DNA from: Catajapyx aquilonaris
Taxonomy: Eukaryota
Assembly (NCBI GenBank): GCA_000934665.2
Contig: JYFJ02000135.1
Coordinates: forward strand, 124,001 to 175,408
Length of the DNA stretch: 51,408 nt
Reading direction: 5' to 3'
Below the pieces are notes generated by a model. That model was not told the origin of the DNA and ran no database searches. It worked only from the letters and a program-made list of their open reading frames with translations. The position numbers and the translations under genes are program-made. Below are positions 5,871 through 51,313 of the stretch, piece by piece; the stretch's first letter is position 1, and every line of letters begins with the position of its first letter.

Positions 5871-6317
5871 CAAAATGGCGGACTGTCTCGGACACAACCT
5901 CCTACCCCACCCTTTTTTTTCTCTCTCTTCCTTTTTCTCTCTATAGCGACTTCTGGGGTTCTCTTTTCCACATCCCCCGGGTTTGGTCCGCCACTGCTGC
6001 CGCCGCCCGCCTGATGGCTGCGACTGACAAAGGCTACAAATCATGAGAATGGCCGATAAAGGCCTATCCGAGCGGGCCGGCCAGGGACGCGGCTCCCTAC
6101 TTTATGACGTCTGTTCATCACGCCATCATAAATTAGAAACTCGAATCTCGAGGGGTTTTTTCCCCGGATGGTGCTGCTGCAGAAGCGGGGAGAGGGGCTG
6201 AGAGGGGTGAAAATAGAGACGTGGTGTTGGCCCCCGTTGGCGTCGCGCAAAAATTTGGATCCGCCATCTTGACCGACGCCTTCCATAGATGGCGACACTG
6301 TTCATAAAAATGGCGTC
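5871..6317. promoter_or_regulatory. Cluster of YY1/Pleiohomeotic (Pho)-type GCCAT sites in a GC-rich patch; candidate Polycomb response element or enhancer
   Basis: CAAAATGGCGG 5871-5881, GATGGCTG ~6013, AATGGCCG ~6048, CGCCATC 6121-6127, CCGCCATCTTG 6261-6271, AGATGGCGAC 6287-6296, AAAATGGCGTC 6307-6317; CT/GA runs at 5921-5942. Function is inferred from motif density only. Confidence 0.4.
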
Positions 6318-9300
6318 TTTTTCTTTTTAAAGAAAACTCGCTTTTTAGAAAGCCCCCTGAAGACGTTACTGACCGGAGTCCCCCCCACCCTCCCCTTCCA
6401 GTATTTACGACCTGGTGAGGACCCCGCCCGGGTTGCCAGGCTTGGAACTACAATCGAGAGGTGTGCGATTTCAGACTGAAGTGGGTGCGAAAAAATATAG
6501 CTTTCAATTTGCACATAGAGGCTTGAAACCCCGATCCGCCTGAATGTATCCTAACACTCCAACTCTTGACGTGACATGTGATGCGACTCGTATTGGAGGC
6601 TGGGGATGGGGGAGGTGCGGCAGCTTTGGCCTTTTTCCATCAAAATTGCAAAAAAAAAGGGGGCCTTTAGTATATATGGGGGGAAAAAAGAGTCCAGTTT
6701 CCCCTCCCACCATTTTGCACTGGCGTGTAGTGGTCATCAAACAATCCTCTCCAGGATTGTACTGGTTGGAAAATTATCTTTGGTTAATAAAGATAGACAG
6801 GCAGTCCCCATTGAGAACATTCACTCGCTGTCATTTGTAACGAAGAACTATACAATTCGGTACCCGATGTACCACGCAATTGAACTCGCCGCAACGATGA
6901 GTGCAACTGATGGTTCCCCCGCCCATCGGATTTCCCGCCGTCAATAAACGACTGAATTAAGAGCTCAACTAATACACTTTTCCCGCTTGTGTCCGACTAT
7001 CGTCCCGTTTTGTGCAAAGACGATACCCAACACCCTTCCACCCCCCCTCTACTGATTGTCAAAACAATGGTGCCCGGTAATAATGGTAAAAAAATGGCTG
7101 ATCAATGTAAACGTGAGTGACAACTGAAGCCCGAACCTGTTTCCCTGTCTATTTGTTCGTTGGCTATTGAAATTAAATCCGGATTTCGTGCGTGGAACAC
7201 TGGGAAACTATTCCACGCTCGATGTGAAGATAATTGTAACCTCTCTTGTGTTCGGGGGGGCCTCCAAAAAAAAATTGCATACTATCACACTCGGGATTTC
7301 CTGGGTTTATCACAACCCTCGAACCGCATGAGTGCCGTTCAATGCAAGAACTACATCACGAGTTACCCAATTATGGCGCAGGAAAGATATATGGAGAAAC
7401 TTTCTCATGGTACAATAATAATTGATACATTTTTTTTTTTTTTCGAGAACCTTTTGCAATGTCAATCCCGGAAGCAGTGTTGCTTACTGTCTTTTGCCTT
7501 CTGCTACTAGTCTCCCCTCTGGAAAAAGGTGGACACTCAAGTCCCCGGGAATCAATACGGGCACACACAACGGAGCTATAAAGGTTCGACTGCCAGAAAG
7601 AGATAAAAGAACGGCCCCAGCATGGATCCCGTGGAAAATGAGGCCCGTTTTCAGTCACTTGAGGCTGAGGATAGAAATCACTGGAAAGGCCAGTTTTCCA
7701 GCCAGGTCACTTACTAGTCCAAGAAGGCATGAAAAGAAATGGGACCAGATTGATGGGCCGGGCTGTGTGGGAAAATGTGCGGAATAATATATATTGCACA
7801 ATGCACAATTACTCGCAGTTTCCAAAAAACGGACACTGGAGGCTCTGTCATAGCTAGGGCTACCATCAAGTGCTGCCATCACACTGCGCAAGGTGGTCAT
7901 AAAGTGCGGAGAGGTTGTTGCACACCCGGGGAAAAAGTGAAAACATGGTCATAATTTCACGGTGTATATCCAGACTGTGTAATGCGTTGCGTAACTTTCC
8001 CCCCCAAAAGACCTATCTTCCGGCTCGGACCCCCATTTAGAGGGGGGGCCTCGAAAAATCTGTCCATTTCTTTTCGCCAGCCGAAAGATATCATTCATGA
8101 CCACGAATCATGTGGATGGTCATTGCTTTTTTTTTCCTTTTTCTTCGCTTTTTTTCACTCTGTATCGATCTGAAATCTTTTTCGAGCAACCTCAGTCCCC
8201 ACTTTTTTCCCTCGAGCAAACACTACAGAGTAGTCCAGTTGTCGGGACGTGAACGTCATATTCTAAAAACAATTACTGAAATCTTGCATCTCAAAATACA
8301 ATCCTCGGTAGCATGCAAACTTACACAATACATGACATAGATATATATGTTAACTCAATTTGATTTTTTTGCGTCTAAAAAAAGGGATAAACATTACACC
8401 TGCAGAGAATGCATCGTTACAACACCGGAAGCATGGAATGTGAAATTCTTTCTTGTACGAACAAGAATCAAATGCACTATGAGCGTATAGTTGCTCACTA
8501 AACGGAATAGCACCGAGAGCCATTATAGGCACCAAAGTGTGTAATAAAATACATTTCAGTACATAATTTTACGCATTTAGTGTCGCGTAATACACTGAAC
8601 CTTTCATATAGCGAAATCGCTCCGTTCCGCATATATTTTCCTGAATGTGAAAGAAATGCATTGCAAATAATCCGCTTCGACGGAAAGCATCACCGCAATA
8701 CTCATACTTTCAACTGTAACTATTACGCCAAACACTGTACTAGCAACTAGGGTACAGGTGCACACTTTGTCGCATAATCACACAATCAGCAAACATGTCG
8801 CAATTCTTATGAAAAATAATTACATACAATCACGAGTTGTCCACCTTCAACCAGGACCGTCCACCCTCCCAGTACTAACCATCTGCAATAAATTCACACC
8901 ACGATGCGGATTACAAGCTGCCCGCCAGTGGATAACCTCACTTGACTTTCGCAACAAACATGACCACCAGCTTACTAACAACTCCCATAAAAGTCAACTG
9001 AAAATATTCTCAACAACTCGAGACAATTATAAATATTTTTACGCAAATATTACCGTTTCTCGCAACATACCCGCATTGTTGCATCTCCCTGACAGCATCC
9101 CTCTCATCCCTGTCTATCTTCCTCCCCCCAACCTCAATCTCCCCCACAAGTGACCCACGACCAAGCAACAGCAAGACTAGCGCCAGAGCATCTGTCAAAT
9201 CAATAGGAGGACCACCGCTCTCAGAAGACTGGCAGGGAACAAGACGAAGGAAAAACCCCCCGCCATATTGCCCATTTAATTCCAACCCAAAAACACACCA

Positions 9301-11018
9301 TTTTTATATACACCTATATTTTGTGAGTATATATAAACCTCAGTGTGCATATATACGAGAGGGTAGATGGATCGAGGGTTGGGAAGGTTCTTTCGGCAGG
9401 GCAGAGTCAAGTCTTTTGATCTAGCCGCAGGATCGATGTAGACGCCAATAAGCGGAGGGCAGGAGCTCCCAATGCTACGACACTGTCTCTTTTACCTTTG
9501 GAGTTTTTTGGTCATTGCAATTGGCTTCCGAAATTATTACCTGGCTACATAGTTCATTTTTAGAGCGAAACACACTAAAATGGGCGTAATAAAAGGCAAC
9601 AATCGGAACAGTAGCTCAAATACAAGTAACATTTGCACCCAAATATTACAAAAAAATAATATTTAACAATATGTACAAATTTGCGCTTAATTTTCATCAA
9701 CACGACGGAAAATATTGCTCAAATTATACTGCACTTCACATGCTCCATTTTCGCATATGAAAATATGTCGTTTCGCAAATACATACCGGACAAAAATGTG
9801 TCCCACGATTTCGTCACAATATGGCCTGAGAAAAAAACGCGGCAATTATAAATAGAGACTAACGAACACTTGCGTCAATCAAGACTTAGAAAGTTTTATT
9901 GCCCGTGTTGCCTCATCAGAATTACTGTGAAGTGTTACATTGCGACATTACTGAAAGTTGAGCCCTGGTTTGCAATGGCCGATTCCTACAAAAATTGTGC
10001 AAAAATATTAACTATTTTCCCGGGTGATCTAACTGCCGGTTTTTTTCGCATCACTGTTCCGGAGCATTATGAAATACCGAAATAAATGGCTCGTTACATA
10101 TTCCTTCAAGTCAAAGCACCCACAGCGGCCCGGCAGTTACAATTCTTGCAAAAACACTGCAAAAAAACTCCGTGTTTTCCACCCACTGAACGCGACAAGT
10201 TCATCGAAGCAGCGATTCTTAACATTCCGGGAGAACTACGACAAACGCGTGGCAAAATAGCCCGTAAAATAACGACAAATTATTTTCTTGTTTTCCTCCA
10301 CCATAACCTCATTTTTTTTTCTCTCCAGACCATATCAGAAAACTCCCCGCGATTATTAAAACTCCGGTCATTATTCGGCCGCATTGTCTGCACACCGGGG
10401 TTTACGGCCTACAATAGTTACAAAGTGCGGGCACTCAACTATTTGACGCCCGGGTAAAAGTCTTAATAACACTTAATACCAACTTTATGAATACTTGGAA
10501 GCCTCGAAACGAGGTGTGAAAATGTCTCCGTTCGTTTTGCGGGGAAAGCATGTGTACCGCGTGCTATCTTCCCCGGTACGGCATATACTTTTCCAACCCC
10601 CACCGTGTTCGCCAACCTTCGAGTAGAAAACTGATGGTCAGGCAAGTAAGATGGATTGCAGGCGAACTCACAAAGACACTTTGACACTTGATTGACAGTG
10701 GTCCTGGTTCGGCTTGATTGATAGAAAAGCACAAACAGGGCGCAGATGGTAGCCGAAATAGTTCAGGGTACCGCGCTGTTATATATCGGATGGTACGCCA
10801 CGTGATACCGTCTAGAACCTCCCTATTTTCCCGGAGTTCGGAGTAATGGCATCTTCTGCCGGCGAGGCCGCTGCGCCCTGTCACTCAAATGTCACCTGTC
10901 ACTCACAGCCGATGCGCTACAGCTGAGTCGCACCGCTGGGGGAGGTTGCACACACAGAAAAAAAACTACCCCCTCCGGAAAATCGAACGCACCTCCGGAG
11001 AAAACCTATGATACTCAC

Positions 11019-11058
11019 ATTTCATGCGCTTAGGGCAGTCCTGCTTCCGTCGCGGCAT
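11019..11058 (-). CDS. tsh: First coding exon (40 nt) of a teashirt/tiptop (TSHZ-family) zinc-finger transcription factor; rest of gene lies left of the window
   Basis: Minus strand reads gagccATG CCG CGA CGG AAG CAG GAC TGC CCT AAG CGC ATG AAA T|GTGAGT = MPRRKQDCPKRMK plus a phase-1 consensus donor (11018-11013). Good Kozak context. Matches the M(S/P)RRKQxxP NuRD-binding N-terminus; the MPRRKQ form is that of TSHZ proteins. tsh versus tio, or another family member, cannot be settled from 13 aa. Confidence 0.75.
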
Positions 11059-11269
11059 GGCTCGACCTCTGACCTAGCACCGTCTGTATGTTGTTAGGAG
11101 GGTGTCACACTGTCCACATGTCACGCACCAAGTGGGAGGGGTAAGTCACTTGTGTCCACTATCACCCAACCCGCCCCCCCGTATGAGGAGTCGACTTGCG
11201 GTGGTACTCTACCGGGGGCAGAGGCAGTGTCGGCGCCTCCTCGGCCGATCAGTCCGGCAATCTGAACTT

Positions 11270-11600
11270 GCACTGAAAATGCTACGGGCCAAGAGGCACC
11301 TCATGGCGAGCCCAGTGACGTCATGACAGGTGGGCGGGGCATGGCCAAGTCGGGGGCCCGCTCACGATTCTCGCTTGGCGCCTGGGACTTGGGTCCTTAA
11401 TGGGCCGCAATTCCAACTGGCGGGTATGGCCCGATCCATCCGCATGGGGACATATTGCGTCCTGCGAATACACAAGGAAGGGCGGCCCGTGGGTTGGACC
11501 ATACCGGATAATCCGGACAGTACGACAACCTGGATACACCCCACACTACATTTGAATCCATACTGTACGTGGTTACTAAGATAGTGGATTCAAAATGGCG
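11270..11600. promoter_or_regulatory. GC-rich, probably bidirectional promoter between tsh/tio (minus) and the ZNF407-like gene (plus)
   Basis: Minus-strand Inr-like TCAGT at 11276-11272, palindromic CRE TGACGTCA 11316-11323, GC box GGGCGGGG 11332-11339, YY1 motif CAAAATGGCG 11591-11600; flanked by outward-facing splice donors at 11018 (-) and 11751 (+). Confidence 0.5.
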
Positions 11601-11750
11601 TCCATGATGCGCGTGGCCGTAACCTGGCGACCCACATAGGGCCAAACAGTCTACTACTCGGCAAACGAGCTGAGATTGGAAGCTGGAGGAAATGATTTTT
11701 ATTTCGGGTTACGGGTCGAGTTAGGATCCGGTGGGTGGTCTGGACGAAAT
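11580..11750 (+). other. Candidate non-coding 5' exon of the ZNF407-like gene (start approximate)
   Basis: Ends at the donor AAT|GTGAGT (11751-11756) followed by G/T-rich sequence. The ZNF ATG at 19009 directly follows an acceptor (ttctattgacag|ATG), so an upstream exon is likely. Pairing with this donor is inference. Confidence 0.4.
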
Positions 11751-14700
11751 GTGAGTATCCACGGCTTGGGATGGTTGGGTGGAAACACCCGGATTCTGCG
11801 GGTGTGGCGATCACGGGGCGTTTTTGTATGGTGCTTGGGTCTGGTTTTTGGGTACTGTCAAAGTGTGAGATCGAATTTGCAGTGTTTGAAGGGGGTGGGA
11901 GGGCGCGGGATGATTTTTCAGGTATTTAGGCGACCCAGACTGAGGGTTCAAGTCAGCTGGGGTTGTTGTAGAACCGGTGTTTTATCGAGCTGCTGGGCCT
12001 GGTTTGGGTTCGATTATGACCGCTTGGTGGCAGCACCAATCACATAGCCGAGCTCAGCGCGCGAGGCTCAATGTGCTTCGTACTTCAAATCGCTGGTGAA
12101 CAGATGAGGAATAGATAATTGCATGACGTAGTTACTGTAGTTATCACAGATATAAACAAGCTGTTTGGGAACATGGTCTGTTCTCTTCAAGGCCGGAACC
12201 CAATTTTAGTGGGGCGTAAACATGCACAGTGCGATGTTGCATTTAATTCAGGTGCGTAATAATCTACTTCCCAGCGTGATATTGTGAGAAATTCACAGCA
12301 CAGAAAGCTGTAATAATGTACAGAACCCAACTTTCAGTGGTAACAATGAATTGCGCTATTTCTTCCTGTAATCAACAGCGCTGCCCCTCATGCGAGGTAT
12401 TTATTGTCAAATAGTTGAAAGACATTAAATTCAATCTGACCCAAACATGACTATTACAAGTGGTTCCTTTGTACATTACTGTTTCACAGTAGGTACATGT
12501 TGTTGACTCGATGAAAATATTATAGTCATTCCCTGATAAACCGTTGTGCCAAACACGTCCAGAGGCATAACCGACGGATCCTCCTTTCTGGCAGCAGAAA
12601 TGAGAGTGTGTGACCTCTTGACATGTGGCACCATGTTCACAGCACAGTATTTCCAAGACGCTGCTTATTACATCCACTGTAATTTTCCCTGGAATTTCGC
12701 ATTGAATCTGGTAATTTTAAATTAGTTATTTCCTGTACACTATTACGTATTTGCCATTACAAATGCAGTCCACTTCGTGTACAGTGCATATGGTTGGTCT
12801 ACTGCATGTGTGAGACGACATAAAAAAATCTATAAATAAGGGTATAACCAACGTATCGTGGTCATATTAGTAATTTTATTTATTGTAAAGGGCCAAATTC
12901 GCAGAAAATTTTTCGGTTCCGGTTTCTAATTTGTTTTGAAACGCGATTTAAAGAAATCGGGAAAATTACACAGTGTGAATTTTAAAGCAATTTCAAAACA
13001 AATTTTTGTGACATCGTCGATCATGATGAACAACAGCAAAAACCCAAAAAACGATAATAACAAAATATACGGTATAACTTTTACGAGATCCAAGTACATG
13101 ATGCATATAGGGTTACCGGCTAAGTTATTTGTATTTTTGGACCATGCAGTGTAGTTGTTGTTTAACATGATTTAGCATTATTTAACGGGTTTGGTTACGT
13201 TTACACTAGTGCCTAAGCAGTAAAACGGGCTCTACGTGACGAGGAGGGAAGTACATGTATTTACTTCTCAAGCCTTTCAAATCCACTTTTCACATTTCGG
13301 TAATGGGACGTCTAGTAACTGGCTAATACTGTACACGAAACGCCCTGCAGTGTAACAGGTCATTTACATTTGCCTAAACAGCAGCGAATGTGATAACCGC
13401 ACCACTGTAACATCAGCACTCCACTGCACTATCACAGTCGCCCGAGCACTTAACATCATATCGTACATACGAACAGCCACTATATGAGTCTGCATCCCAT
13501 CCCACAGTATACACAACAGTGAAATAGACATCCACATGCCCTGCATGTCCAGCATCCTTATCTCCCAGCACTCTTTCTCCTCCCTCGAGTCAGTTGACCC
13601 CCCAGCTTCTCTCCGGATCCAGTCAAGCACAACATACAGCCAACAATAGTCGTCCACAATACTGTCATTTGTCTATTAGCCCTTCCCGGGTGTGTCCCTC
13701 CGGATCCATCACTACTGGACCTCTATTTGCATGCACTTATCTCCGCCGTTTCCCAAAGTGGACTGACTAATGGACATATAAACTCCGGATTGCAACAACA
13801 CAGAGGCAAGTCACTCAGGCACTCATTGGCCCGGGAGCACGTATAAATAGCCTCCAAGCATAGAAATTTCACAAAGAGAAGTGTTTCCGGAGGTCACAAT
13901 AGCGCTGCCGTAAATTGGGAAAGCCCAGCTTCTGGTTGTTTCAATGTTGGGTCTCAGAATGGGAAATGCCACTTGAAGCGCGTCTTCTGTAAATAAGTTA
14001 TGCGGGACCACTCCGTAACAGCAATCCCTCTCCCAAGTCTTGCCCTGCATATTATGTAGTCTTCATCTTGAATCTCGTCTCATGTCCCCCCCCATCTCCT
14101 CCTCCTTCCTACCCGAATCTCGTTACTCTGAGACGACAACGGACTACTTGTGCTTGGGTTTGAACAGCTCACTTCCTACTCCATCACCAACTGGGAAATT
14201 CATGCGGTCAAAATAATATATCACGAGGAAAGGACACACATGAATACATAAGCTGGTATCATACACCCTTGTTTACAGATGGCAACGCGCTGAATCATAT
14301 CAGGTGTTTAGTTAATACCACATTTTATGTAATGTTTTGGAATGATTGATTAAGGGTGTATGAACCCGCTTTCTACTGGCATCAAGTGTATAGAAGAAAA
14401 TTCGCAGTCAGAATGGCAGCAGTTGCGTGCCTTGTTGCCGTTCCTTCTCCGGTTTTTGCGTACATTTTTGGACAAGCTGCAAACAAAGAGCATGTGGGTG
14501 GTGCGTACTCCGGGCCGTAAATCAGTTATGGAGGATGGAAAAAGGTGCGACAGCTATCCATTACCGGCCTCCCCTCTCCCCCTGCCCCGGTAACTTCCTT
14601 GCCCCCCTTGCCCCCCGACCAGAGGCGCTGTGTGAACCCTGCTGAATGCGAAAGGAGCTCGGACGTGTCTTATAATCTTGTCCGTTGCGTGTTTCCACCG

Positions 14701-17700
14701 TACCTGTGTCACTCTTTGATAATTCCTCAAATGACTACCGTGGGATGGATTATTGCTGCTCTCCTCTTCAGTTGAGGTCGAAATTGGTGGTGAGGCTTCT
14801 TAAATTACGAATGATCCCCGAGGTTTCGCCATTATGTGCCGGATATTATTTGTCAGGGTGTGCTGGAGTACATTATCAATATTGTATGGATCTTTCATGA
14901 AGAAACGTATGGTATAAGCAATATTACAACAGTCGTATGTTTGTTATTAGTGTCGTCTATTGCTGACTAACAGTGCTGTAGCACTGTACGAGTACAATAA
15001 TGTCTGCGATGCAATTTACGATGTTGTTATTGCAATATCATTATTTGCCTACAATTCATTTGTCTTGTGGCCAAAATGACAGGATAGTTCACATGATGGT
15101 TTTTATATGCAGGGTGGTGAGTGTACTGTATAAGTCCTCAGTTCAAGAAGTTTGGGCATATAATTATTGGGCTGTATTACCTTTATATCATACACATATG
15201 CAATAAACCGCCAGGCCCAGTTTAGATAAGGATTGTTGGGTTTGCGACTCTTGACACATTTCTCTGCACAAAAAAATGAAAAGTGGAAAAATGGCGTCCA
15301 GTAATTAAATCCCGAAAATGAATGTACAAATAGAAAAGAACCTTCCTTTTCTCATAAATCAAAGAGGATTTACCCCGAGTAATTAATTACCCCGAAGTGG
15401 CTATAGGCACCTGCTAGTTCCGTTTCTTGGCCACTGTTGTTTCTTGAATGGCATTTCCCTAATTCTCTCTCCTACCGTGGTTTTTGATCAAGTGCCTCAT
15501 TATTATTCTCGTCTAGGCCTGACATTGCTCCAAGGAATGCCCCAATATGCATATCGCGTCATGTAAGTTTTCATGCGTATATAGGAGCCAAAACAGATGC
15601 ACAATTGTTGAACGTACGAAAACTGTTGACATCCAAAGACCCTCAATTGTTTAAAAAAAAAACTGAGTTGCTAACGCCGAATTGGACATGAAAGGAGCAA
15701 TAAAACCGCCGTAAAATGAGCGGGACTGGCAAATAACTCGTCACTTTTTTGATCTCTACCACAGTGTATATAACCGGGCCCATGCTTTATAGCGAACCTT
15801 TACAGGAGATTATTAAGCTACCACCTTAAGCCCTCGGCGGGTTTAGTTCCAGAAAACCAGCAGATTTATCTTATCAGAAGCACTTCCTTACCGCTCCTCT
15901 ACACCCTCCCAACTGGTTCTATACACGCCAATAAATATCTGACCGCCAATAGGTCGTAAAGTGGACTGTGCGTTGAGAAAGAAATTGCAATAGAGAGGAA
16001 CCGTTGCCATTTGTGCCCATCACCCAAATTAAATCACTGTTGGAATTGGCCCGAAAATTGCTTGCCATGATTGGTTACGAGACACGGTCCTTATACGTAT
16101 GTGGAGTATTGTATAATTTTTTTGTATTGTAGTGTTTTCAACAATATGGCTCTGGAGGGTTCCCCGTGAACTATAGGCAACATGTACGTCACTTCCACTG
16201 CGCTCCAGCCAATCCCAGACGTTATTCAAGAAGGGCACGTCCTGTTCAGTAGCATCGGCAGTTTCTAACAGACTGGAACTGTGGCCGGTACTATTAAAAA
16301 TGCGTCATCTCCGTTACTCCTAAGCGGGGTATATGATTATTCAGGACGCTTGACACCACCGCCTTCCTGTAGCACACTGCTAAGTCTATTGGGCGTCCGA
16401 CAGAAGCCTCTTGGAGTTTCCTAAGCCGGTTTAGCCTCCGCCGTGTAGACGTCACATCGCATGATTATTGAATCTAAGTGGAACCTGTCGTTGTTGCAAG
16501 AACTCCGCTGCCAATTTGCTGGACGTACGCGAATGAAGTGGATGTCACTGCAGTCTACAGCACATCAAACTGCAGGCTTTAATTGACAAGCCAAAATGGA
16601 ATCAGCCGTGTAAAAGGGATTTTCCGTGCCTGACATGTGCCATGTTAATCAATCGTAATCTCATTCCCGGACTAAGCTTGCCGGAGACCTACTTGTCAAA
16701 CGGGAAGACGCGCTCTGGTGCTTTTCATTCCTCCGCTATTCCGGACTACAGCACACGACCAAACTAAGGCCCCCCCCCCTCCCTCTACTTCGGGGGTGGG
16801 CAAGTGTCCATTAGGCCCCCCCTTTGGAGGTAGCTTATTGGCATGCTTGACAGGTCACAAAGGTCGAGGATGACAGTCCTGCCTCTGCGACATGTTTAAT
16901 ACGTCGGGTACAGGGCCTAATCCAAAATGTGATACTTCCTCCTTTTCTCGGTACAAATGCTCGTCTATACTATACACACAAACTATAAATGAAGCCATTC
17001 TAGGTCACATAAAGTGACGCATTATTTTTGTTACTATAGTATGCCCTGTAGCTCTAGAAAAATTAAATATGTTGGCCTCATATTTTTTGGGCACAGTACA
17101 ACCCTCTGTAAATGCAATTGAGACAGTTTGATCTCGGCCATTGATAGTAACTGATCTCGACCTGAACCATTCTATCAATTCTATTTTTTTTTCTAATTCG
17201 CTCATGACATTGTGTCAGTTTCAGGGCATTACTGAAGAGTGGTATTAATTTTTCATCTCTTCATCTATTCCAAAGTTGATGGATCCGTGACCTTAGGACA
17301 GACCGGAAAAAGGGACAGCCAGTAAAGCTTATCACACTCGGAAATGTTGGGTGGGCCGTTTCGGGGCATTAAATTTATTTCAATCTATCCCCACGGATCC
17401 TATTGATTTAGGCGTATCCTTTAGGACCGTGTCGGCGCTCGACATTTACAAGCCTTTATTCGGTTATGGGCCAAATAATAATGTTTACCGGGCCCTCAAA
17501 CATTTTAAAATACCGGGTCCTCCGCAATGGGAACAGTAATAAAGCATGAAAGATTCACGGCCACTTGTTATGTCGTGCGTGATATACCTGGGACCCCGAA
17601 TGCATCAATCTTGATAAGGGTTTTGGATCTAAGTCAGTCTTCCAGGAGCACTTTATGGACCTGCCCATTTTCGGCGTATCGGCCAAAGTACCAGGCTCTC

Positions 17701-19008
17701 TAAAAGTGTACTGGGAGTATTCTTACATTGGCGGAAATAAATATTTCTAAGGGCATGGTGCAGGTGATAGAAGAGGTTGGCAGTGACATTTTTGACAGCT
17801 GATGTATTGATTCCGCAAATAATACCGTGCTTATCGATCAAAGTCCTTGTGTCTAGCTCTATACTTGGCCACTATTGGCCAATAGAAGCCACTTAGTGCT
17901 CGGCGGAACTGTGGAAGTCACTTTTGACAAGATCGGTGCTACTCTGTCTGGATCCTTCGAACTTAAATAGACCAGAACTTCGTCAAATTCCGACGAGCTG
18001 TCCAATCAGCCGACTAGAAAAGTATAGATCTGCCCTGTGGGAAATGGACTCTAAGATTAGGATGGTATTAGGCAACGGTCATACCTTGCACCGGAACAAT
18101 TTGGTCCGCTTGTACGAATTGGTCAGATCAAAGTAAGGCGAGCCAATCCCCTATGTCAATCACACTTCAGCAGACCAATTTTTGTCCAAGTCATTCAATG
18201 ACCCTATGTTATTTATGCAAATGCCATATTGCCAATTTGATGTGATGTTACGGCGTTGACCATTGTTGTCACTCTTTTTTTTATATGTAGTGTGTGTTGC
18301 GGTCAGTGCAGGAAAAGCTTGCAGAAGTTCCTGGAGGAAAAGAGCTGGGCAGAAGCAATGTTAGGTGGTGGGTGGAGTGGAGGTGGTGGGTAGGGGGAGG
18401 AGAGGGAGAAGGCTCAGGGCAGGGGCGGCCGCTAGTCAATCCCTCTGACAATCAAACTCTATCGATCCACTTCCACGGTCCACCGGCCTGGCGGCGTTGC
18501 CAGTGTTGAAAATTTGGGGAGTGCCTGAAGAAATCTAGGATTATGTTTCTCAGATTAATAAAGGAATCAGTCAAAGACATACCATTTGTATGGCGGGGAA
18601 AATTGCAAATATGGCATAGAATGGTGGCTATTAGGGACTTGCAAATTGAAATAAGTTGTTCAGTTAACATTGTTTGGTACATGCAATAAGTTGCAATTTT
18701 ATATATGTACAGTGCGTGTGTTATGCGCACTTTGTATGTGTCCAGTGGGGGTAGCAGGCAGTATTGCAACGTGGCTCCTTCACCGAGGTCCAGCTTACCC
18801 AGGTTGAAAGATTCCCGGATTCCGTCAACGCCAATTCCAAAGCAAATGTTACTCTAGAGATCCGGAGCCGTATAGAAAAGGGGCGGAAACCAGCACCAGA
18901 ACATTTGTCGTGCCCGCTCTTGAATTATAAAAATTGTGGAAATGGTCGCATGTGATGACATCTGAATCTTCCGACTGAAATTTTTTATTCCTCTATTTCT
19001 ATTGACAG

Positions 19009-20413
19009 ATGTCTGAAATGGAGTATGACGACACCCACATCTGCCTGAAGTGCAACACCACCGTGGTTGGATTGGACAACTACGTGTTCCACCGCAAGCA
19101 GCAGTGCAAAGCATCCTCTGCGAAACCTTCAAGCGGATCTCTGATTGATCCGCCGTCGCTCATCGTCAGTTCCGACGCCGCATCTTGCCTGTCAGTCAGC
19201 GCCGGCGGGAAAGACGGCGGGTCCAGAAACGACGAAGATGCTCAGCCCAAAGCGGATGACTTCTTTCACTCATTGGAATTACAGAGCAGCGCCATCAAGC
19301 GGCCGAGTCTTAAAGTCAAATCATCCGGGGTTCGAACCCGCCGGGCTGTGGCGGATAGCCTAGCCGGTAAGAAGGCGAAGGAGAAGCCCAAAGTTGTGCC
19401 CAAAAACAGGCCGCAACTGCTGAAGAAACCGGACAAACCTAGGAAGGAAGACAATCCGGATGTACTTGAGCCGTTTCAGGACATACCGGATCTGGCTGAG
19501 AGTCATATGCCGTATGATGACTACACGGGTGGGAAGTGGCCGCCGCCTGAGTCGCTGGCGTCCAGTTTGACCGATCCTTTTCAGTCGGACGTGGACCTTC
19601 AGTATCAGTATCCGCCGTTGGGTCACACGGGTGGGAAATGGAAACCGGGGGATCAGCACCTGTTCGACACTGATCCGCCACCGGCCAGCCACACTGGCGG
19701 GAAGTGGAAGCCAGGGAATTTTGAGGACGGACACTCTTCGGCTGGTGGGAAGTGGAAATCGGACCACTTTGAGTACCACCCGGCGTCTGGGAGCAAGTGG
19801 AAGTCGGTTGGGTTTGATGACAACCATCCGCAGACTGGGGGAAAATGGAAGCCATACAACTTTGAGGACAGCCATCCGCAAACTGGAGGAAAGTGGAAGT
19901 CTGTCGGGTTCGATGACCATCACCCACAAACTGGAGGGAAGTGGAAGTCTGTTGGGTTCGATGACCACCACCCTCATACTGGAGGGAAGACCTTCCTGGG
20001 CCAGAAGGAGTCATCCGACCTGAATAGTATATTGCCAGACACGTGGCTGTTTGACCACGAGGTACATCCAGCCGAAGACAAGTCCTCCGAAGTGTACCTG
20101 CCTCCGCCGCCACCTCCTACGACTGCCACTCGTGGTAAGTGGATGCCAGGGAAGCGAGACCTGCGCAAGTCTGGCAGCACGGTTGAATATTTCTGCAAGC
20201 CATGCAACCGCCGACTTACGAGCAGAGCCATTTACGAGAAGCATCTGTTGTCCGAGTACCACTCCAAGAGAGTCAACTCCTTGGATGAGTCTCATAAGGA
20301 CGGCTGGAGTGGTCGGAGCCCGAAGCGGGCCATTAGGCGTAGCCCTTGGTACAACGACTGCGTGCTGGGATCCGGCAAGCGAAAGAAGCGACCAAATGCC
20401 AAGCTAGTTCAGG
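19009..20413 (+). CDS. ZNF407: ZNF407-like coding exon 1 (C2HC finger, GGKW repeats, matrin-type finger, basic NLS-like tract)
   Basis: 483-aa ORF; acceptor AG 19007-19008, donor CAGG|GTGAGT at 20414, phase 1. Confidence 0.9.
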
Positions 20414-23400
20414 GTGAGTTATTGCATATGTACTGCAGGAGCCAAATAATATCTCAATGATTACCCACAACACATGGATGGGCTGGCCCGATGCCTACAT
20501 CCAGTCCTGCCAAGCTATGTAACATGTCGTCACAACAGTATACCGGTACTGTTGTGTGGACACATGATGAAGGTCCTTAAGAGCAAATGTGGCTGTATAA
20601 TATGCATCTAAAATTCTGATAGTTTGTCACGACAATATGGGAAACCATTTAATCACAGACAAGGCCTATATTTTTTTATGCAAAAGATAGAGAGTTTGAT
20701 CAAATGAAAACGAGAATTGTGCCATAAAAATGTTTAAAACCTGTCGTTTGAGATGTCACTTGACCATGGCAATTGCCTACTCATAGTGTAGTGCTCATGA
20801 CTTCAGGCAGTTTGTCAATAGGTGGAAGGGAAGTCAAACAGCAGCTGTTTAAAGACGACAGTGCCCCTCCAGACAACCAAGGAGGATACAAGAGCAATTA
20901 TTACTCTGTTTTGTACTCAAATGGACAAACGCCATCTCTTTGTATTGGCGAATACAACTAAACGTACAGTAGATATGCCATGCATCTCGCCGCCTCGTGC
21001 CTGCGAGTGGTGTAAAAAAAATTCCAGGTGTTCTAGATCCATTCCACTGTTCTGACAGCGGCATGTCTCTCAAACTTTCATCTTTTTGAAATATTTTACA
21101 CCACTCGTAGACAAGCGAGAGACAAGCGTAGACAAGCAAGAGACATGGCAGATCCGTACATTGCCTTCATTCGCCGATATTGTGTGGGTTTTGTCTACTC
21201 TGCCCAAAACCAGATAATAACTCCCTTCCTTCATAGTACATGCCGGAAGGGGCACCATCTTTGCTTTGCTACACTATAGCATACGACTAACACTTCACCT
21301 ATCGTAAATCAGCTTGAATCTATAAGTGTTAACCAACATCCCAACGGATGGGAAATAATGTCATTATAATATCACCTTGCTCGCTTTCATTTGATCCGGA
21401 CACTCATATAAAATGAATATCGTATAGTGTCGAAGAGGGAATTAACATACAAAATCGTTATGATTTTGCTAACTCATTTTTATGTTGCGTTGACTGACAG
21501 ACATCAGCGTATTGGAGATTTGTCCGTACACTCTGGCACTGAGCGGAATTGTGGTGGGGGTGGCGGGGGAAAACCGCCTTGTACATGACTGTCGCTGACG
21601 TTCGCCCGCTTTGAGGTAAAATCAATCGCGCTTTTTTCAAATAGAACATATTGTATCTATCCGTTTTAGATGGCAAAAATAACCGAATCATTACCAAATC
21701 AGAAACTTGATACAGTTTGTCAGACGTTACACCCATTCATATCGTCAGTCCATTGAATAAAGCATCTCCCATTTTTTTGCAAGGAGAGTCAATGATAAGC
21801 AGATAATATTGAAAATGAGATAATAGCGTATGTTTTAAATGGCATGCAGAATTTGTTCACAAAAGCGTGCACATGTCATTGTAATACAAGAGTAAGCAGA
21901 TATGTCTCGAGTGTGCCAACATGTCAGCGCAATGTGCGTTATTTAAATAACCTTTCCTTACAATACGCACCGCAATCTCAGCAAAACAGGTTTCGTTCCA
22001 CGTATCACAATACAACAGAAATGTTAGGAGACTTTGAACAACGCTTTGGAAGAAACAATATCTGCATCGTGAAGAAAAGGTTCATTGAACTGGTAGTGGC
22101 CTCCTTGCCAAGGTCATCTCGAGATGCTGAAAATGACGAGGAACTTGGGATGTCACTTGCATGCAAGTTTCCCAATATAGGAGTATACATACTGCAGAGG
22201 GAAGAGTATCGACTGTTCCGATTTAGAAGAGTTCACCCCGCGGAGGCACATAAACAGTTATCCCATTACAACTGTCAGCGACGAAAACAAAGTAGCATTG
22301 GGTGTAAGAACTTTTTATCGAGAGTTTCAAAACTGCGCCGGGGAAGAGCGGCGGGGGGGTATAGATTCAATGTGCCGAGGGAGCATTCAAAATCCAATCG
22401 GGACATAAAAGTGATGCACGCATCTCTGAGCCCGAATGTAAACCTTCTGTCTTCCAATGAATAGAAATGGCTCGTTATACATTCCGGGGGATCACGGGGG
22501 TTGTGGCTTCTACAGCTGGAGGCTATCGATGAAAATATTGACAAGAGGAATACAATCTTCCTCTAGCGTGTGTTCCGCGGTATTTATATCCGGAGTAAGA
22601 AGTGACGTCGATAATGAAGCCAAGATTGGATAAGGGGACCAGGGCCCCGGAACAATGACTTCCACATTTTCTAAAAAAAAATGAATTTTCACCAGTTCCA
22701 GATACGCCGCTGGATCTGACCTCTGGCACGTTGCAGTGCGAGGCGTGCAAGTCCAGGGTACCGGAGCACCTCCTTGGGAAGCACCTGGTGTCGCATTTCC
22801 ACTGCTTTAAGGCTGTTGGGCATCCTAAGGAGCAGGAGGTCATACTGGGTAATATGGACAAGATAGTGCGACAAGCGCCGTTTCAGTGCGGTCTGTGCAG
22901 GTTTTACTGCAACACGGCCGAAAATCTGTTGTTCCACTGGGAGTCGGACATGCACAAACAGAAGGATGACCTCTTCAAGGGGTACTACCAGTGTTCTTTC
23001 TGTAAACACCAGTGTGACACCAGCGAGGCGATGATGGAGCACCTGACCGCATACGACCACACCGAGATGGTGGCGGTCATTGGCAAGTCGGTGCCTCTTG
23101 TCATCCGGAAGTACGTGCCTTTGGAGTGTCCCAAGTGCGGACGGGTGTTCAAGTACAACTTTGAACTCAAGGCTCACGTGCGGTCCGAGCATGGCGACAA
23201 AAGTTACCTACCTCCGAGCGAGATCAAACTGGGATGTAAATATTGTGAGTACACGACCATCTCGGACGTCTCGCTGCAAAAGCACCTCAAATACCAGCAC
23301 AAGGAGAAAGACACTCCCGTCAAGTTCTTCTGCCATGTGTGCAAGCTACATTTCCAGACGAAAGAGGCGGCGGTGCAGCACAGAAGGACGCCGGTATGTT

Positions 23401-26400
23401 GTCGAATGATGGAGTACCTCACCTTTCTCCTTGAATCCTTGCATTCATCACCATTCCTTTCTGTGCAGGAACACCGATACCTCCGTGAAGGTCGCAAGGG
23501 TCAAGTCAAGACTCGGTCTTGTCCTCATTGCAATGACAAGTTTCTGGGGGACCCTCGTTACAGGCTGCACCTAAAGCAGCGTCACCCGGAGAGATGCTCG
23601 CGGTGAGAATCATAAGTAGTTTCGATCTAATTATTACACGGCCAAAATATTAACCGGATAAATTTCAGGTGTTACAACTGTGGGCAAATATTTGCTCTGC
23701 GGCAAGAATTGGCTCGCCATACTTCCAAAGGCTGCTCTCCTGCCAAAAAGGTGGTTCCAGAAAAATCTCAAATTAGCCCGAAGAAAAGTCCGGTGTCCCG
23801 CACATGTTCTCTTTGTGCGTTTCAAAGTGATAGCCAGGCAGAGGTGCTGTTTCACCAAGCACTTCACGAGGATCCACAATGCATAGCACCAACCAAGCCA
23901 AAAATTGGATCGAAAAATGAGGTCGGTGTAAATTAGCATCATGTAGTGTCCAATGTTTAACAACAATTTCGTTTTATTTCAGAATACAGCTCTGAGTAAA
24001 TATCGATGCCCTATCTGCAGTAATTACTTCCAAAAAAATATTCTGCGTGGTCACATTCGCAAGCATCTGGGTGACCGTCCATTCCAGTGTCCAGAATGCA
24101 CGTCCAAGTTTACCACCACTGCCTCCCTCAACGGGCACATCCGACGTGCCCACACCACCCAGAAGAAGCACAGCCTGCCTTGTCCAGATTGCCCCTTCAT
24201 GGCTTCCAATCCACACATATTAGAACGGCACCGCGCATGTCACAAGAAGGACCGCACACGAACTGAACTCTGTGATGTGTGCGGCAAGGCCTTTTTCAGC
24301 AAGTAAGTTGACGCTGTCATTAGTTCAAGGAGGTGTTCGCGCCCAGTAAGCAACGCGACACCAGAAGACCAGTCACATTTTCCTCGAAATTGACTTGTAG
24401 TCCTTGACAACAATCACATGTCCATCTCCATACAGAGGAGGCCACAAGGTGACTTGTGGTCACAGTGTTGTTTCTGCTACTCTGAGTCTGTCAATCGCAT
24501 TTTAATTGTTGGGTGTAAATTATGGTGCAGCACCCAACATTCTCGTTTTTTCTCCTGTTTCTATGCACATGGCAAAGAGGACGTAGACCATGTACCCCCA
24601 TCTTCTTCTCCCGTCTCCACAATTCGAGATGGGCAGAGACGTATTAAATCACGCAGATGTGCCCTCCCACTCCCATCCAGTCGTACGGGGTCATCCGATT
24701 CCTAGCCAAGGCGTTCGATACAAAGAAAAACTTGAAACTAAGAAAAAAAAAAGCGGCATCTTCACGCCGTGCCGGCTTCCTCTTCGTGCCGCGGGAGAAA
24801 AGGGCAGTTCCCAGCAGCCCCCTCAAACCAGAGCCTCTTATGAAAGACTCCCCAGACATGTCAGGGCAGCCAATGCTCGTAAATATGTCGAGCCTAGGCT
24901 GCAGGGGTTGGAGTGAAGGTTATGGAGTGCATGGCTGACTGTTTGGACCGGAGCCCACGCCGAGTGCCACCTCCGATCTGATTGGTCCCTGAAGCGCGTT
25001 TTCGTGACGCTCCTGGTCGTCCGGACCAATCGTGGATGAGGTTGAGGCGCGTCCGGCGGGTCCAAGCAAATGGAGCAGTTTACAACGAACATCATGCGCG
25101 GACCGTATATCCTTCAGCTCGGAGACAGGTTTGATGAGCAGACCGCCTTTTTCCCTTTCGGAAAAAGAAGGGGAGATGGAGAGGGGGAAGGGAGTAGGGG
25201 TCTAGCCAGCTTTCTCGAGATTTTCATGCGCCCTCGACACCAGATTTACGGGCGCTGCGCTCCGAAAAGAATGCCATAAATCCTGTGGTGGCCAGGCAAC
25301 CCCCGATGCCCGCCCTTGCGGAGATTGGCATGATTCGATATAGTTTTCAAGCGTGATAAATAGTAATTACTACCTCTGGTTTTTACCGCCCTTCGTTATG
25401 ATGACCACTATATTTCATACGGTTCTCTGGAAATAAATATCGCCAAGTTGTTGTAATGCCCGGTGATGGGGGTGGGGGAAGGTGAAGGTTTTTGGCGGTA
25501 TACTTCTCTCGGGAAGGAAAACCAGACTACATAGATTTGCCTGCAAAACGCCCCTTACAGACGGGGGCCTTTTTACATGAGAAACGTTATTTTTTTGTAT
25601 GTGTAAATGATGCGATCCGGAGATGACGTGCCATCAGACAAATTAGGATTAGCGGGGAGAAAGTTTGATATATTTTTTCCAAAGGTTAAGGCATAAATAA
25701 TTCTTTTAAATCGTGTTCTATTAAACAAATGAATCATAATTTTTTTAAACCCTCGGCGTGTTCGTTACCATCAGGGGATAAAGGGTGATTTCTACATTAA
25801 TTTTTACCGTCACTCATAAATCCGGTTTTAGTGCCTTTTTTGACGGGTTACATGGCAGCACAAATCATTTTAAAAATTGTCGCACAAGTAGGGAAGCCGA
25901 AATGGTATATTACTACTCCAGTTTCCTGATGTCTTGAATGCACGTGAGCTCCATGGAAGAGTCTGGAGCATTAGAACTCATTTTTAAGTGTTCTGATGTC
26001 CGTGCTAGAAACCGAGGAAAGGCGTAGGTTTGACTCCCATGTTCAGGTAATGGGCGTAATGTTAATAAAGCACGATTTTATGACCCATGACTTCACGCGC
26101 GTGCTTTGAACACAACCAATTCCCCAAGGTAAGAAAGTACGCCCTTCAGTCTCCCACCCTTGTGTTTGTACAATAAATCCAGTGTACGACCCGTATTCTA
26201 AGCAACTGACTTTCTGCACTTTAAATTCACTTATGGATGAGGGGAAATAGACATCCTTAAATTTACAAGGGGCAGGTTCGTTTTTTTTTTTTGTCGCCTT
26301 CCCTCTTCCTTATACTGTCGCTTCGTGTTTCACACGTTAAAACTAATCAAGTCGGGAGATTTATACCACAAGTAAATCGTGAAAGGAGGAGAAAAAATGA

Positions 26401-27766
26401 CGTCGTCAATTTACTGTCTTTGATGTTGCCATAGAGCGGGGTTAAAGAAGTACAATTCCTATGCGAAGTTGTGTCATGTGAAACCTTCACCGAAGACAAA
26501 CGGGACGAGTTCTGAGCTGGCATACCGTAAAATTGTTTTCCCACTTTTTTGCCTTGTTTCTCTCCCTAGGTACAACTTGGTGCACCACCAAAAACTGCAT
26601 ACTGGCAAGCTCTTCAAGTGTACCCACCAGAACTGCATCTTCTCGTGTCGATCCGAGGGCGAGCTCCGTGCCCATCGTCGGATCCACTCCGACGAACGGC
26701 CCTACGAGTGCGACATGTGCGAGTATGCGGCCAAGACCCACGGACAGCTGGCGAGGTGAGGACACTTAATACCGTGGTGTGATGTTATGACTTCCTTCAC
26801 TCTTATTTCAACAGGCACCGCAAGTTTCACGAGGCTGTGCGAATGCACAAGTGCCCTCATTGCGAATTTACGGCCACGTTCCGGGGACATCTGCGCCGAC
26901 ATCTGCGGCTCCACACCGGCGCCAAACCGTTCAAATGTCCCTACTGCAACTATAAATGCAATCTCCTGGTACGTTCAGGCCCTCTAGAGTTCGTTTTATA
27001 AGAAATTGGACCCAGTTTTGGGTCGATGACGTCCAATCATTATGGCCGCATCAATCAAAAGTGGTTTTGTATTGATCCTGACTAATATTAATTTCAGGAG
27101 AATCTTCGCAAGCATATTCTGCAAACTGTGAAACATGTGGGGAAGCACATGTACGAGTGCAGGTTTTGTCCTCCTGGTGAGGAGCCATATGCTACAGACC
27201 TGTCCACCGAATTCCGCATTCATCTGTGCCTAAACCACAAAGACCAGTTCCCTAACACAAAGGCAATCACGTCCTACCTGGCTGGACTATACGACGCTGA
27301 TGATGACCCTGAGACCACCGAAAATCCTCTACCGGTTGTGAAGAAACGGTGAGTGTATGGGTAATCAATTTAAGCCAGTTTTATTATCGTTGTCGTATGC
27401 ATTCCCAGCCTCCAGCCAAATTATACACTGTCAAAACACCCCTCGGTGGACACTGCTCCAGAGGTACCTCCTAAGGAACCGGATAATGTGATATATGTCA
27501 ATGTGCTTCCTGAAGAAAAAGACTTAAAGGAACTGAACATAATCATGGAAGAAGACAAGGAGACCATGTCAAAGCCTGAGAGTGAAAAGCTAGAGGTATC
27601 AACTCAATTGAACAATCTTGTTGAGAGTGATCCTGGAACAACTGGGCCTACAATCACTGCAGATGAAGTTACACATTATGAGGAGTTGGTAAACCACTGC
27701 CTGCAGACACTGAATGAAACTGGGTCTGCCTCTCCAGGACAGCCCTTTGTGTTTATTTTTGAGTAA
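19009..27766 (+). CDS. ZNF407: ZNF407-like multi-zinc-finger protein, 9 coding exons, about 1252 aa: join(19009-20413,22696-23393,23469-23602,23669-23921,23983-24302,26570-26755,26815-26968,27098-27348,27409-27766)
   Basis: All eight introns are GT-AG with matching phases and splicing rebuilds fingers across junctions; total 3759 nt. N-terminal C2HC finger, several matrin/U1-type C-x2-C...H-x5-H fingers and a C-terminal C2H2 array. The array's last fingers (HTGAKPFKCPYCNYKCNLLENLRKHILQTVKHVGKHMYEC...EFRIHL) resemble my recollection of human ZNF407 (HTGEKPYRCPWCDYRSNCAENIRKHILHTGKHEGVKMYNC...EFRNHL). Gene model is high confidence, orthology moderate. Confidence 0.85.
19690..19989 (+). repeat. 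Coding tandem repeat, 48-bp/16-aa unit (KWKSVGFDDHHPQTGG)
   Basis: Four clear 48-bp units at 19795-19842, 19843-19890, 19891-19938 and 19939-19986, plus two more diverged units upstream. Confidence 0.9.
20851..21262. mobile_element. Degenerate long inverted repeat (foldback or MITE relic) in ZNF intron 1
   Basis: Perfect inner arms CGAGTGGTGTAAAA 21004-21017 / TTTTACACCACTCG 21094-21107. Nested imperfect matches outward: TGCCATG/CATGGCA, TATTGGCGAAT/ATTCGCCGATA, TTATTACTCTGTTTTG/CAAAACCAGATAATAA, GTGCCCCT/AGGGGCAC. Confidence 0.6.
22696..23393 (+). CDS. ZNF407: ZNF407-like coding exon 2 (PLDLT motif, matrin-type and C2H2 fingers)
   Basis: Acceptor ttttcaccag (alternative in-frame ttccag gives start 22702); donor CCG|GTATGT at 23394; ORF 22731.. 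frame. Confidence 0.88.
23469..23602 (+). CDS. ZNF407: ZNF407-like coding exon 3
   Basis: Acceptor cctttctgtgcag, donor CG|GTGAGA; encodes EH...CPHCNDKFLGDPRYRLHLKQRH. Confidence 0.85.
23669..23921 (+). CDS. ZNF407: ZNF407-like coding exon 4
   Basis: Acceptor aatttcag; encodes CYNCGQIFALRQELARHTSKGC and CSLCAFQSDSQAEVLFHQALH; donor GAG|GTCGGT. Confidence 0.85.
23983..24302 (+). CDS. ZNF407: ZNF407-like coding exon 5
   Basis: Acceptor ttttatttcag; three C2H2 fingers and the start of a fourth; donor AA|GTAAGT. Confidence 0.9.
26570..26755 (+). CDS. ZNF407: ZNF407-like coding exon 6
   Basis: Acceptor ttctctccctag; completes CDVCGKAFFSK-YNLVHHQKLH; donor AG|GTGAGG. Confidence 0.9.
26815..26968 (+). 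CDS. ZNF407: ZNF407-like coding exon 7
   Basis: Acceptor atttcaacag; encodes HRKFHEAVRMHKCPHCEFTATFRGHLRRHLRLHTGAKPFKCPYCNYKCNLL (frame absent from the ORF track); donor CTG|GTACGT. Confidence 0.9.
27098..27348 (+). CDS. ZNF407: ZNF407-like coding exon 8
   Basis: Branch-like GACTAAT then atttcag acceptor; encodes ENLRKHILQTVKH...SYLAGLY; donor CG|GTGAGT. Confidence 0.9.
27409..27766 (+). CDS. ZNF407: ZNF407-like coding exon 9 (terminal, acidic tail)
   Basis: Acceptor attcccag in the required phase 2; open to TAA at 27764-27766. Confidence 0.8.
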
Positions 27767-27889: not shown

Positions 27890-27895
27890 AATAAA
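27890..27895 (+). terminator. Candidate polyadenylation signal of the ZNF407-like gene
   Basis: AATAAA about 124 nt after the stop, preceded by TGTA; a second AATAAA at 28073-28078. Confidence 0.5.
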
Positions 27896-48825: not shown

Positions 48826-48865
48826 ATGAGTTACCAAATGCAGTCATCAGCACAAAGCCGATCAA
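48826..48865 (+). CDS. arm: arm coding exon 1 ([13 protein letters not shown])
   Basis: gccATG context, donor A|GTAAGT at 48866, phase fits the next exon. Confidence 0.85.
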
Positions 48866-50804: not shown

Positions 50805-51313
50805 GTGAGTCCAGTGTTACTGAAAATTCATGTGTTGTAAGGGATATCATTGGGTTTAACCATGCAAAATGTTTCCGTGGTCATGAAGTTACTGATCTCA
50901 TTTTGCTTTTGCAAGCATATCAACACATCTTTTGTCCAGCTATTGTCTGTAATGAGCTGAAAAGTAACCTCAAATTACATTGCCTGGTAAAGAAATATAA
51001 AAAAGTAAAAGATACAAAGATGAATACTTAAGATTCTTACAGGAACCTGCTGTCAAACATCAGCAATTATACGGTACAAGGTACACTTTAAAATGTTGCC
51101 TTATTATTTATTCTGTGCTGGGAAAGCCAATTTTGTCTGCAGTCAAAATTAGCTTGGTAATAATGAGGAGGACATGTTGAACAGGTTCATTTTGTAGGCT
51201 CATCAGGTGTTATTGTTGTGAGTAAGGAATTCATCATGCATTGACGAAAGAAATCTTGCAGAATGGACTTTCAGTGCAATGAACTAGTTTTCTGGCATTT
51301 GTGGGGTTTAATA

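Follow-up and report, generated by a model that had tools for sequence, protein, structure and literature searches.

Head-to-head teashirt and ZNF407-family genes in Catajapyx aquilonaris and Drosophila: a linkage probably shared by descent with the vertebrate TSHZ1-ZNF407 block

In the human genome ZNF407 lies at 18q22.3 and is catalogued as a bystander of the developmental gene TSHZ1; 36 conserved elements are counted for it (PMC2831330, Table 1). A cluster of 59 ultraconserved elements falls on TSHZ1/ZADH2/ZNF407/ZNF516 (PMC3436827, Table 2). The human gene order is given as ZNF407, ZADH2, TSHZ1, SMIM21, ZNF516 (PMC5057431); TSHZ1 has a different neighbour from ZNF407 at a distance of 1,407 bp (PMC7530604, Table S3), which by this order is ZADH2. 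Nearly 600 ancient gene pairs were published in 2012 (Irimia et al., PMC3514665), in which unrelated genes including a developmental regulator have stayed linked for more than 600 million years, and for which that paper names two causes, co-regulation and bystander enhancers. The pair described here, teashirt (tsh) and an orthologue of ZNF407, resembles them. It was found in a window of 51,408 nucleotides from Catajapyx aquilonaris (positions 124001-175408 of contig JYFJ02000135.1, here C52, which is about 175 kb long). Here we present the identification of both genes, the corresponding pair in Drosophila, and an assessment of how old the linkage may be and what may have kept it. The original prediction for this DNA had named ZNF407 and TSHZ1 as near neighbours in human with ZADH2 between them, which the first three of these sources bear out.

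The start codons of tsh coding exon 1 and of the ZNF407 gene point apart with 7.95 kb between them, so that the two genes are head-to-head neighbours, as noted before. Open reading frames (ORFs) of at least 110 residues outside both genes were scanned against Pfam over the whole contig (114 ORFs; six ORFs crossing the locus borders were excluded), and none of those between tsh and ZNF407 matched a Pfam family, a scan that small-exon genes could escape. Each of the two genes has one match in the genome (best candidates scored). The linkage is conserved in Catajapyx, Drosophila and vertebrates, and by common descent it is probably ancestral to the bilaterians. Whether it was also kept as a genomic regulatory block is less certain: given ancestry, that cause is somewhat favoured, and the two statements combined have about an even chance of being right.

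The tsh exon occupies 11058-11019 on the minus strand and consists of MPRRKQDCPKRMK (13 codons) plus one base, with the N-terminal motif PRRKQ, followed by a GTGAGT donor. All 13 residues recur at the N-terminus of the Tribolium Tio/Tsh protein EFA10732.1, listed in PMC8173736, supplement 1. Human TSHZ1 likewise has a PRRKQ N-terminus, and that peptide pulls down NuRD (PMC8166343). On the same strand of the contig, about 70 kb farther left, a frame of 1167 codons (C52:64349-60849) encodes four atypical, widely spaced C2H2 fingers and PLDLS, and its last 24 residues are those of the Tribolium Tio/Tsh C-terminus in a by-eye comparison (PMC8173736 supplement). By sequence and homology two further exons are predicted there on the minus strand, exon 2 at C52:65457-65262 and exon 3 at C52:64233-60846, which would be the downstream exons that the original prediction expected left of the window. 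In the Tribolium protein listed in that supplement a Trp follows the 13 residues, and the predicted split codon of exons 1 and 2 likewise gives Trp. Among 14 candidate acceptors that restore Trp plus Asp/Glu, only C52:65457 opens a long acidic, Tribolium-like frame. With donor 65262 and acceptor 64233, the three predicted exons join in frame to an open protein of 1207 residues, and intron 1 would measure 69,561 bp, of which the window holds the proximal part (1..11018, minus strand). A direct splice from exon 1 to the body of the gene was rejected on mismatched phases at the two best acceptors. The splicing of exon 1 to the tsh body is thus a prediction from common strand, fitting phases and an open frame.

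No homeodomain family was found among the six Pfam matches of the predicted protein. Insect Tsh proteins are expected to have no homeodomain; vertebrate TSHZ proper has one, unlike Catajapyx Tsh as scanned. A fly-type alternative first exon was searched for and not found. An origin of exon 1 in another RRKQ-type protein was ruled out by the identity with Tribolium Tio/Tsh and the tsh body on the same strand. The exon at 11058-11019 is, on this comparison, that of a teashirt/tiptop gene, and the TSHZ-type call made earlier stands.

The partner gene comprises nine plus-strand coding exons between 19009 and 27766, all bounded by AG and GT, which join to a protein of 1252 residues with no internal stop, the length claimed before. 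A HMMER search with exon 2 among 1.84 billion proteins returned 83 proteins (E up to 1e-30), many of which align across most of the protein; a word-index protein search with exon 2 gave no matches, and in Atlas and PDB the queries exon 2 or 8 met nothing but generic zinc fingers. Named members of the family come from insects (beetles, flies, mosquito, sawfly, butterfly, locusts, stick insect, cockroach) and from other protostomes (shrimp, centipede, nemertean, brachiopod, molluscs including limpet), carry unrelated labels (ZNF91, Xfin, ZNF236, ZNF700 etc.), and begin with the same N-terminal C2HC finger as the window protein. In the Atlas, the centipede member has its best match in a chordate cluster of ZNF407. 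When the C-terminal fingers of one family protein served as query, fish ZNF407 fragments came back at 57-59% identity and ZFP64 at 40-46%.

Regarding the forward comparison, the window protein was ranked against 39 named vertebrate proteins (8 ZNF407, 16 ZFP64, 2 GZF1 and 13 ZNF143/76), in which ZNF407 is represented by C-terminal fish fragments of up to 639 residues. All eight of these came out on top, the best with 164 bits, and ZFP64 followed as the second-best vertebrate match with 120 bits. Regarding the reverse direction, a 56-residue segment of fish ZNF407 with its H-x6-H finger ranked window positions 27098-27244 first of 16 in the genome (E 4.1e-4 versus 0.035). The spliced protein was also compared with 20 rival loci, which are short stretches from the top of a genome search with a whole fish fragment: it ranked first of 21 for two of three fish ZNF407 queries, was second by E-value yet had the top bit score for the third, and was last of 21 for two ZFP64 queries. 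Within the sampled proteins and loci, window protein and fish ZNF407 are each other's best match. The last six fingers are collinear with those of fish ZNF407 and equally spaced; among them are a C-x4-C finger and an EN[LI]RKH-x6-H finger (the H-x6-H finger lies at 26936-27136, plus strand). This array is common to the window protein, fish ZNF407 and the locust, centipede and nemertean members, and both of these fingers are absent from the two ZFP64 proteins compared. In a tree of 67 rows, ZNF407 and the protostome family split off together with support of 99/95 when a long butterfly branch was included and 90/72 without it; a quick tree of 33 rows gave 98, and ZFP64 fell outside the ZNF407 clade in both. 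The window protein fell within the insects, closest to a sequence from a locust, in a position that is not firmly resolved. A generic zinc-finger array, ZNF143/76 and GZF1 were rejected by the vertebrate ranking and the 67-row tree.

Several observations pull away from this assignment, mostly towards ZFP64 (ZNF338). In the approximately unbiased (AU) test, neither a clade of ZNF407 plus ZFP64 (p 0.060) nor one of ZFP64 plus protostomes (p 0.062) was rejected. The N-terminal 30-55 residues of vertebrate ZFP64 hold a C2HC finger of the type found in the protostome family (E about 1e-6), a feature in which ZFP64 is like the window gene; it differs in having no H-x6-H finger and in its recognition helices. 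When the genome was searched exon by exon with a whole fish ZNF407 fragment and the best 145 of 2588 candidates were scored, generic intronless zinc-finger arrays dominated, and the window gene was absent among the 150 of 276 matches listed. ZFAT, ZNF335, ZNF142 and ZNF507 lie outside the vertebrate sample. With BLAST in both directions, finger order and two trees in agreement, and ZFP64 co-orthology not rejected (AU p 0.06), we identify the window gene from its sequence as the ZNF407 orthologue. The earlier ZNF407-like call is thereby upheld; of the reciprocal BLAST and phylogeny proposed as its check, the best match both ways and the ZNF407 clade came out in favour, and the ZFP64 alternatives were not rejected.

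The same pair can be recognised in Drosophila. Two guide sequences have been published for FBgn0051612 (PMC7062466 supplement), which is CG31612 in supplement rows of PMC4380341 and PMC6485956. They translate to DTHLCI and VPASHT, and the other 10 frames give nothing. DTHLCI occurs exactly in 21 of 333 compared proteins, always at the N-terminal finger of the family and including three Drosophila proteins; VPASHT matches at 5 of 6 residues in seven of the 333, including the same Drosophila proteins and the window protein. (Note that this comparison set is rich in family members, so that the counts are not chance rates.) Both guides fall on family motifs in the right order, by which CG31612 is identified as the Drosophila member of the ZNF407 family found in the window. 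No human orthologue is given for CG31612 in the supplement rows of PMC10960990, PMC4380341 and PMC6485956.

On 2L, CG31612 occupies 21,762,314-21,795,447 (minus strand) and tsh 21,828,593-21,837,011 (plus strand) according to the supplement of PMC10960990; the two are head-to-head, with annotated starts 33,145 bp apart. The Drosophila 2L locus at 40A (CG31612-tsh-tio) thus has a ZNF407 orthologue head-to-head with tsh, as in Catajapyx, and the original expectation of adjacency in another invertebrate was confirmed. CG31612 spans 33.1 kb for a coding sequence of 2,964 bases (PMC6485956 supplement rows), mostly intron. The FRT40A insertion at 2L:21,794,705 falls 742 bp into its first intron (PMC2854151; coordinates from different releases), about 34 kb from tsh. 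CG31612 has a first intron that begins close to its 5' end, like the Catajapyx gene as reconstructed below. Unlike in Catajapyx, a 33-kb gap separates the fly genes, tsh is duplicated, and the Tsh and Tio sequences listed in the source have no PRRKQ start; the gene ids 35427 and 35430 suggest other annotated features between CG31612 and tsh.

It is very improbable that the insect and vertebrate adjacencies are separate in origin, or that the insect gene is not specifically ZNF407. The sampling holds no intermediate lineages, and a scan of thousands of neighbour pairs will meet chance matches. The intervening gene differs in human, and so presumably does the orientation. The AU p-values of 0.06 and the related vertebrate families outside the sample also speak for this explanation. 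Against it, four kinds of sequence evidence favour ZNF407 (vertebrate ranking, H-x6-H segment, tree and finger collinearity), and it would be unlikely to meet the same gene out of many thousand twice on the same side of tsh/TSHZ. Even if the gene were co-orthologous to ZFP64, that gene too lies near a TSHZ gene. The two neighbours of TSHZ3 we take to be ZNF536 and ZNF507. In the PMC7530604 supplement, two genes are listed as neighbours of TSHZ3, about 1 Mb on either side, and ZFP64 is listed as a bystander of SALL4.

Common descent of the linkage being preferred, its maintenance by a regulatory block was considered next to other causes. The vertebrate block is made up of the same two families as the insect pair, TSHZ being the developmental gene and ZNF407 its neighbour. 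It differs in that ZADH2 stands between the human genes and that human ZNF407 has 36 conserved elements, whereas none were found in the insect gene in a low-power test (the comparison DNA hardly reached ZNF407). The vertebrate order ZNF407-ZADH2-TSHZ1 could have arisen by a local inversion and an insertion. On the block explanation, tsh would depend on enhancers situated within the introns of ZNF407 or past it, and separating the two genes would deprive tsh of them. With starts as close as proposed for Catajapyx, the tsh enhancers on that side would have to lie in or beyond ZNF407, and the candidate space would comprise a 5' intron of 7.3 kb, the later introns, and the 21 kb before the first coding exon of an armadillo gene. 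The enhancer-in-bystander mechanism has its support in vertebrates and for insects is a proposal. Of the earlier idea of a bilaterian linkage kept by tsh enhancers in or beyond ZNF407, the linkage is borne out by Drosophila and vertebrates, and the enhancer cause has support in vertebrates alone.

Some results count against the ancestral block. The linkage has been sampled in two insects and vertebrates only. Human ZNF407 and TSHZ1 presumably face the same way, an orientation unlike that of the insect pair. At least 60.8 kb of the contig lies 3' of tsh and the predicted tsh intron 1 takes up 69.6 kb, compared with about 16 kb for the whole, compact ZNF407 gene. The PMC7530604 supplement on ancient chordate blocks does not mention ZNF407. 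A degenerate pattern of tsh exon 1 plus donor retrieved 10 metagenome loci (six near-identical). Their upstream DNA measures 646-4,502 bp in nine and 10,000 bp in L043, which alone spans the 8 kb that separate the genes in Catajapyx. Sixteen family queries detected no ZNF407 coding exon in this upstream DNA of any of the 10. Both conserved non-coding candidates described below are on the tsh side.

These results also bear on a passive explanation, by which the linkage is ancestral and ZNF407 sits at the edge of the tsh domain, where few breaks have been fixed; the insect gene would hold no tsh enhancer, and vertebrate enhancers would have settled in ZNF407 later. Most non-coding space is indeed inside or 3' of tsh, and ZNF407 is compact. 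Drosophila gene order is heavily shuffled, yet the pair has been kept there; moreover CG31612 is mostly intron, and the 5' intron of Catajapyx ZNF407 would be three times any other intron of the gene. We regard passive retention as rather unlikely.

Where the ZNF407 gene begins matters for a further explanation, which is that the ancestral linkage was kept by a shared bidirectional promoter and both genes are co-regulated. A pyrimidine tract and AG stand immediately before the ATG at 19009, and because this acceptor directly abuts the ATG, an upstream exon must exist. It is likeliest, to judge from base composition and motifs, in the GC-rich stretch beside tsh exon 1, where the putative divergent promoter extends over 11059..11750 (by composition). 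Positions 11001-11600 have 57.3% GC, within the top 2.3% of the 600-bp windows of the contig. A non-coding exon 1 is proposed on the plus strand at 11592..11750, with a AAAATGGCG motif at 11592 and the donor GTGAGT at 11751; it would be followed by a 5' intron of 7,258 bp (11751..19008, plus strand), three times as long as any internal intron of ZNF407. Between tsh and ZNF407 there are four GTRAGT donors (11141, 11751, 15117, 15563), and the AAAATGGCG motif has eight plus-strand occurrences in the contig and hence is not rare. A short upstream reading frame of 14 codons at 11596-11640 (plus strand) begins within the motif. If the proposed exon is right, tsh and ZNF407 would start a few hundred bases apart.

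A shared promoter would fit the GC-rich region of 0.7 kb, with its GC boxes, TGACGTCA palindrome, AAAATGGCG motif facing ZNF407 and strong donor at 11751, and the head-to-head order in both insects. In addition, both fly genes are higher in S2 than in Kc cells (CG31612 9.55 versus 0.8 and tsh 62.2 versus 0.17 transcripts per million; PMC10960990 rows, only two samples). Set against this, the annotated fly starts are 33,145 bp apart, the neighbour at 1,407 bp from human TSHZ1 is another gene (ZADH2 by order), and the first ZNF407 exon in Catajapyx is itself a proposal. No AAAATGGCG-type motif facing away from tsh was found in the available upstream DNA of any of the 10 metagenome loci. Because flies and humans do not have it, a shared promoter is weaker as a general cause, and we consider it quite unlikely.

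In a bolder form of the promoter idea, a single promoter would already have served tsh and a ZNF407-like gene, placed head-to-head, in the bilaterian ancestor, and ZNF407 would be no bystander but would take part, co-regulated, in the Tsh programme. Catajapyx would keep the original tight arrangement, and the zinc-finger genes next to the three vertebrate TSHZ genes (ZNF407, ZFP64 and ZNF507) would be diverged descendants of the ancestral partner, of which ZFP64 retained the N-terminal finger and ZNF407 the C-terminal array. This is a speculation to which we give little credence; if true, fly CG31612 would be a genetic model for the block and for ZNF407 function.

The regulatory block remains the preferred cause. 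Conserved non-coding sequence was sought in the metagenome loci. An element at 11316..11338 (minus strand), a candidate tsh promoter element with a GC box, TGTCA and the TGACGTCA palindrome, matches at 21 of 23 bases in four of the 10 loci; these four are near-identical to each other and therefore count as one independent observation, and the best of 300 random contig pieces reached 19 of 23. Another conserved stretch, about 30 bases long and ending in CAGGTAG, is common to the metagenome loci L037, L043 and L044, where it lies 280-790 bp before the tsh ATG; it resembles 11316-11338 read on the opposite strand. A weaker candidate in tsh intron 1 (6101..6134) matches L044 at 29 of 34 bases (E 0.014, one of 10 loci) and points the same way with respect to exon 1 in both. 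It has TTTATGA-type sites at both ends, which we take to be of Hox/Caudal type. Around it lies a GC-rich patch (5872-6430) with AAAATGGCG-type motifs at 5872 (plus), 6262 (minus) and 6307 (plus), which could by its composition and motifs be an enhancer or a second promoter.

Regarding the literature, the main text of PMC3514665 makes no mention of the pair, which its supplementary list, outside the text covered, may contain, and a term search of PMC10735318 found neither tsh nor ZNF407. No link between tsh and ZNF407 in insects, or between CG31612 and ZNF407, was found in the full-text literature, a scope that leaves out subscription papers and orthology databases. Most probably the pair represents an old linkage of a type already described and, as far as found, unreported for invertebrates; what is new is the identification, by sequence, of fly CG31612 as a ZNF407 orthologue head-to-head with tsh. 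If the preferred reading is true, a known vertebrate regulatory block dates back to the bilaterian ancestor and can be tested in Drosophila. The uncharacterised CG31612 and a mislabelled protostome family can be named as ZNF407 orthologues, and the widely used FRT40A insertion would sit in the first intron of the fly ZNF407 orthologue, near tsh.

The nine coding exons of the Catajapyx ZNF407 gene are all on the plus strand. Exon 1 (19009-20413) encodes the N-terminal C2HC finger, an FFxSLELQ motif, nine GKW/SKW repeats and one matrin-like finger; exons 2 (22696-23393), 3 (23469-23602), 4 (23669-23921) and 5 (23983-24302) encode the middle zinc fingers and are followed by exons 6 (26570-26755), 7 (26815-26968), 8 (27098-27348) and 9 (27409-27766), the last with the stop codon at 27764-27766 and an AATAAA at 27890. 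The internal introns measure 59-2282 bp. The nine repeats, mostly TGGKWK, lie at 19522-20154 (plus strand) in the N-terminal part of the protein, and no Pfam family covered them in the Pfam scan. At least one GKW occurs within the first 600 residues in 101 of the 109 family members with an intact N-terminus (maximum eight). The intron after coding exon 1 contains an open frame of 221 codons (21799-22464, plus strand), which may be due to chance or a transposon remnant.

Two of the 114 scanned contig ORFs outside the two genes had a Pfam match, both of them armadillo, at the right end of the contig. Recognisable genes in the 175-kb contig thus number three, tsh, the ZNF407 orthologue and armadillo, subject to the limit of the ORF scan given above; with the predicted tsh first intron of 69.6 kb, the surroundings of this developmental gene are gene-poor. 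The armadillo/beta-catenin gene (Pfam Arm; 48828-50840, plus strand) begins about 21 kb after ZNF407 and runs past the contig end. Fly Tsh protein binds Armadillo, and in view of this binding the armadillo gene near tsh is a curious coincidence.

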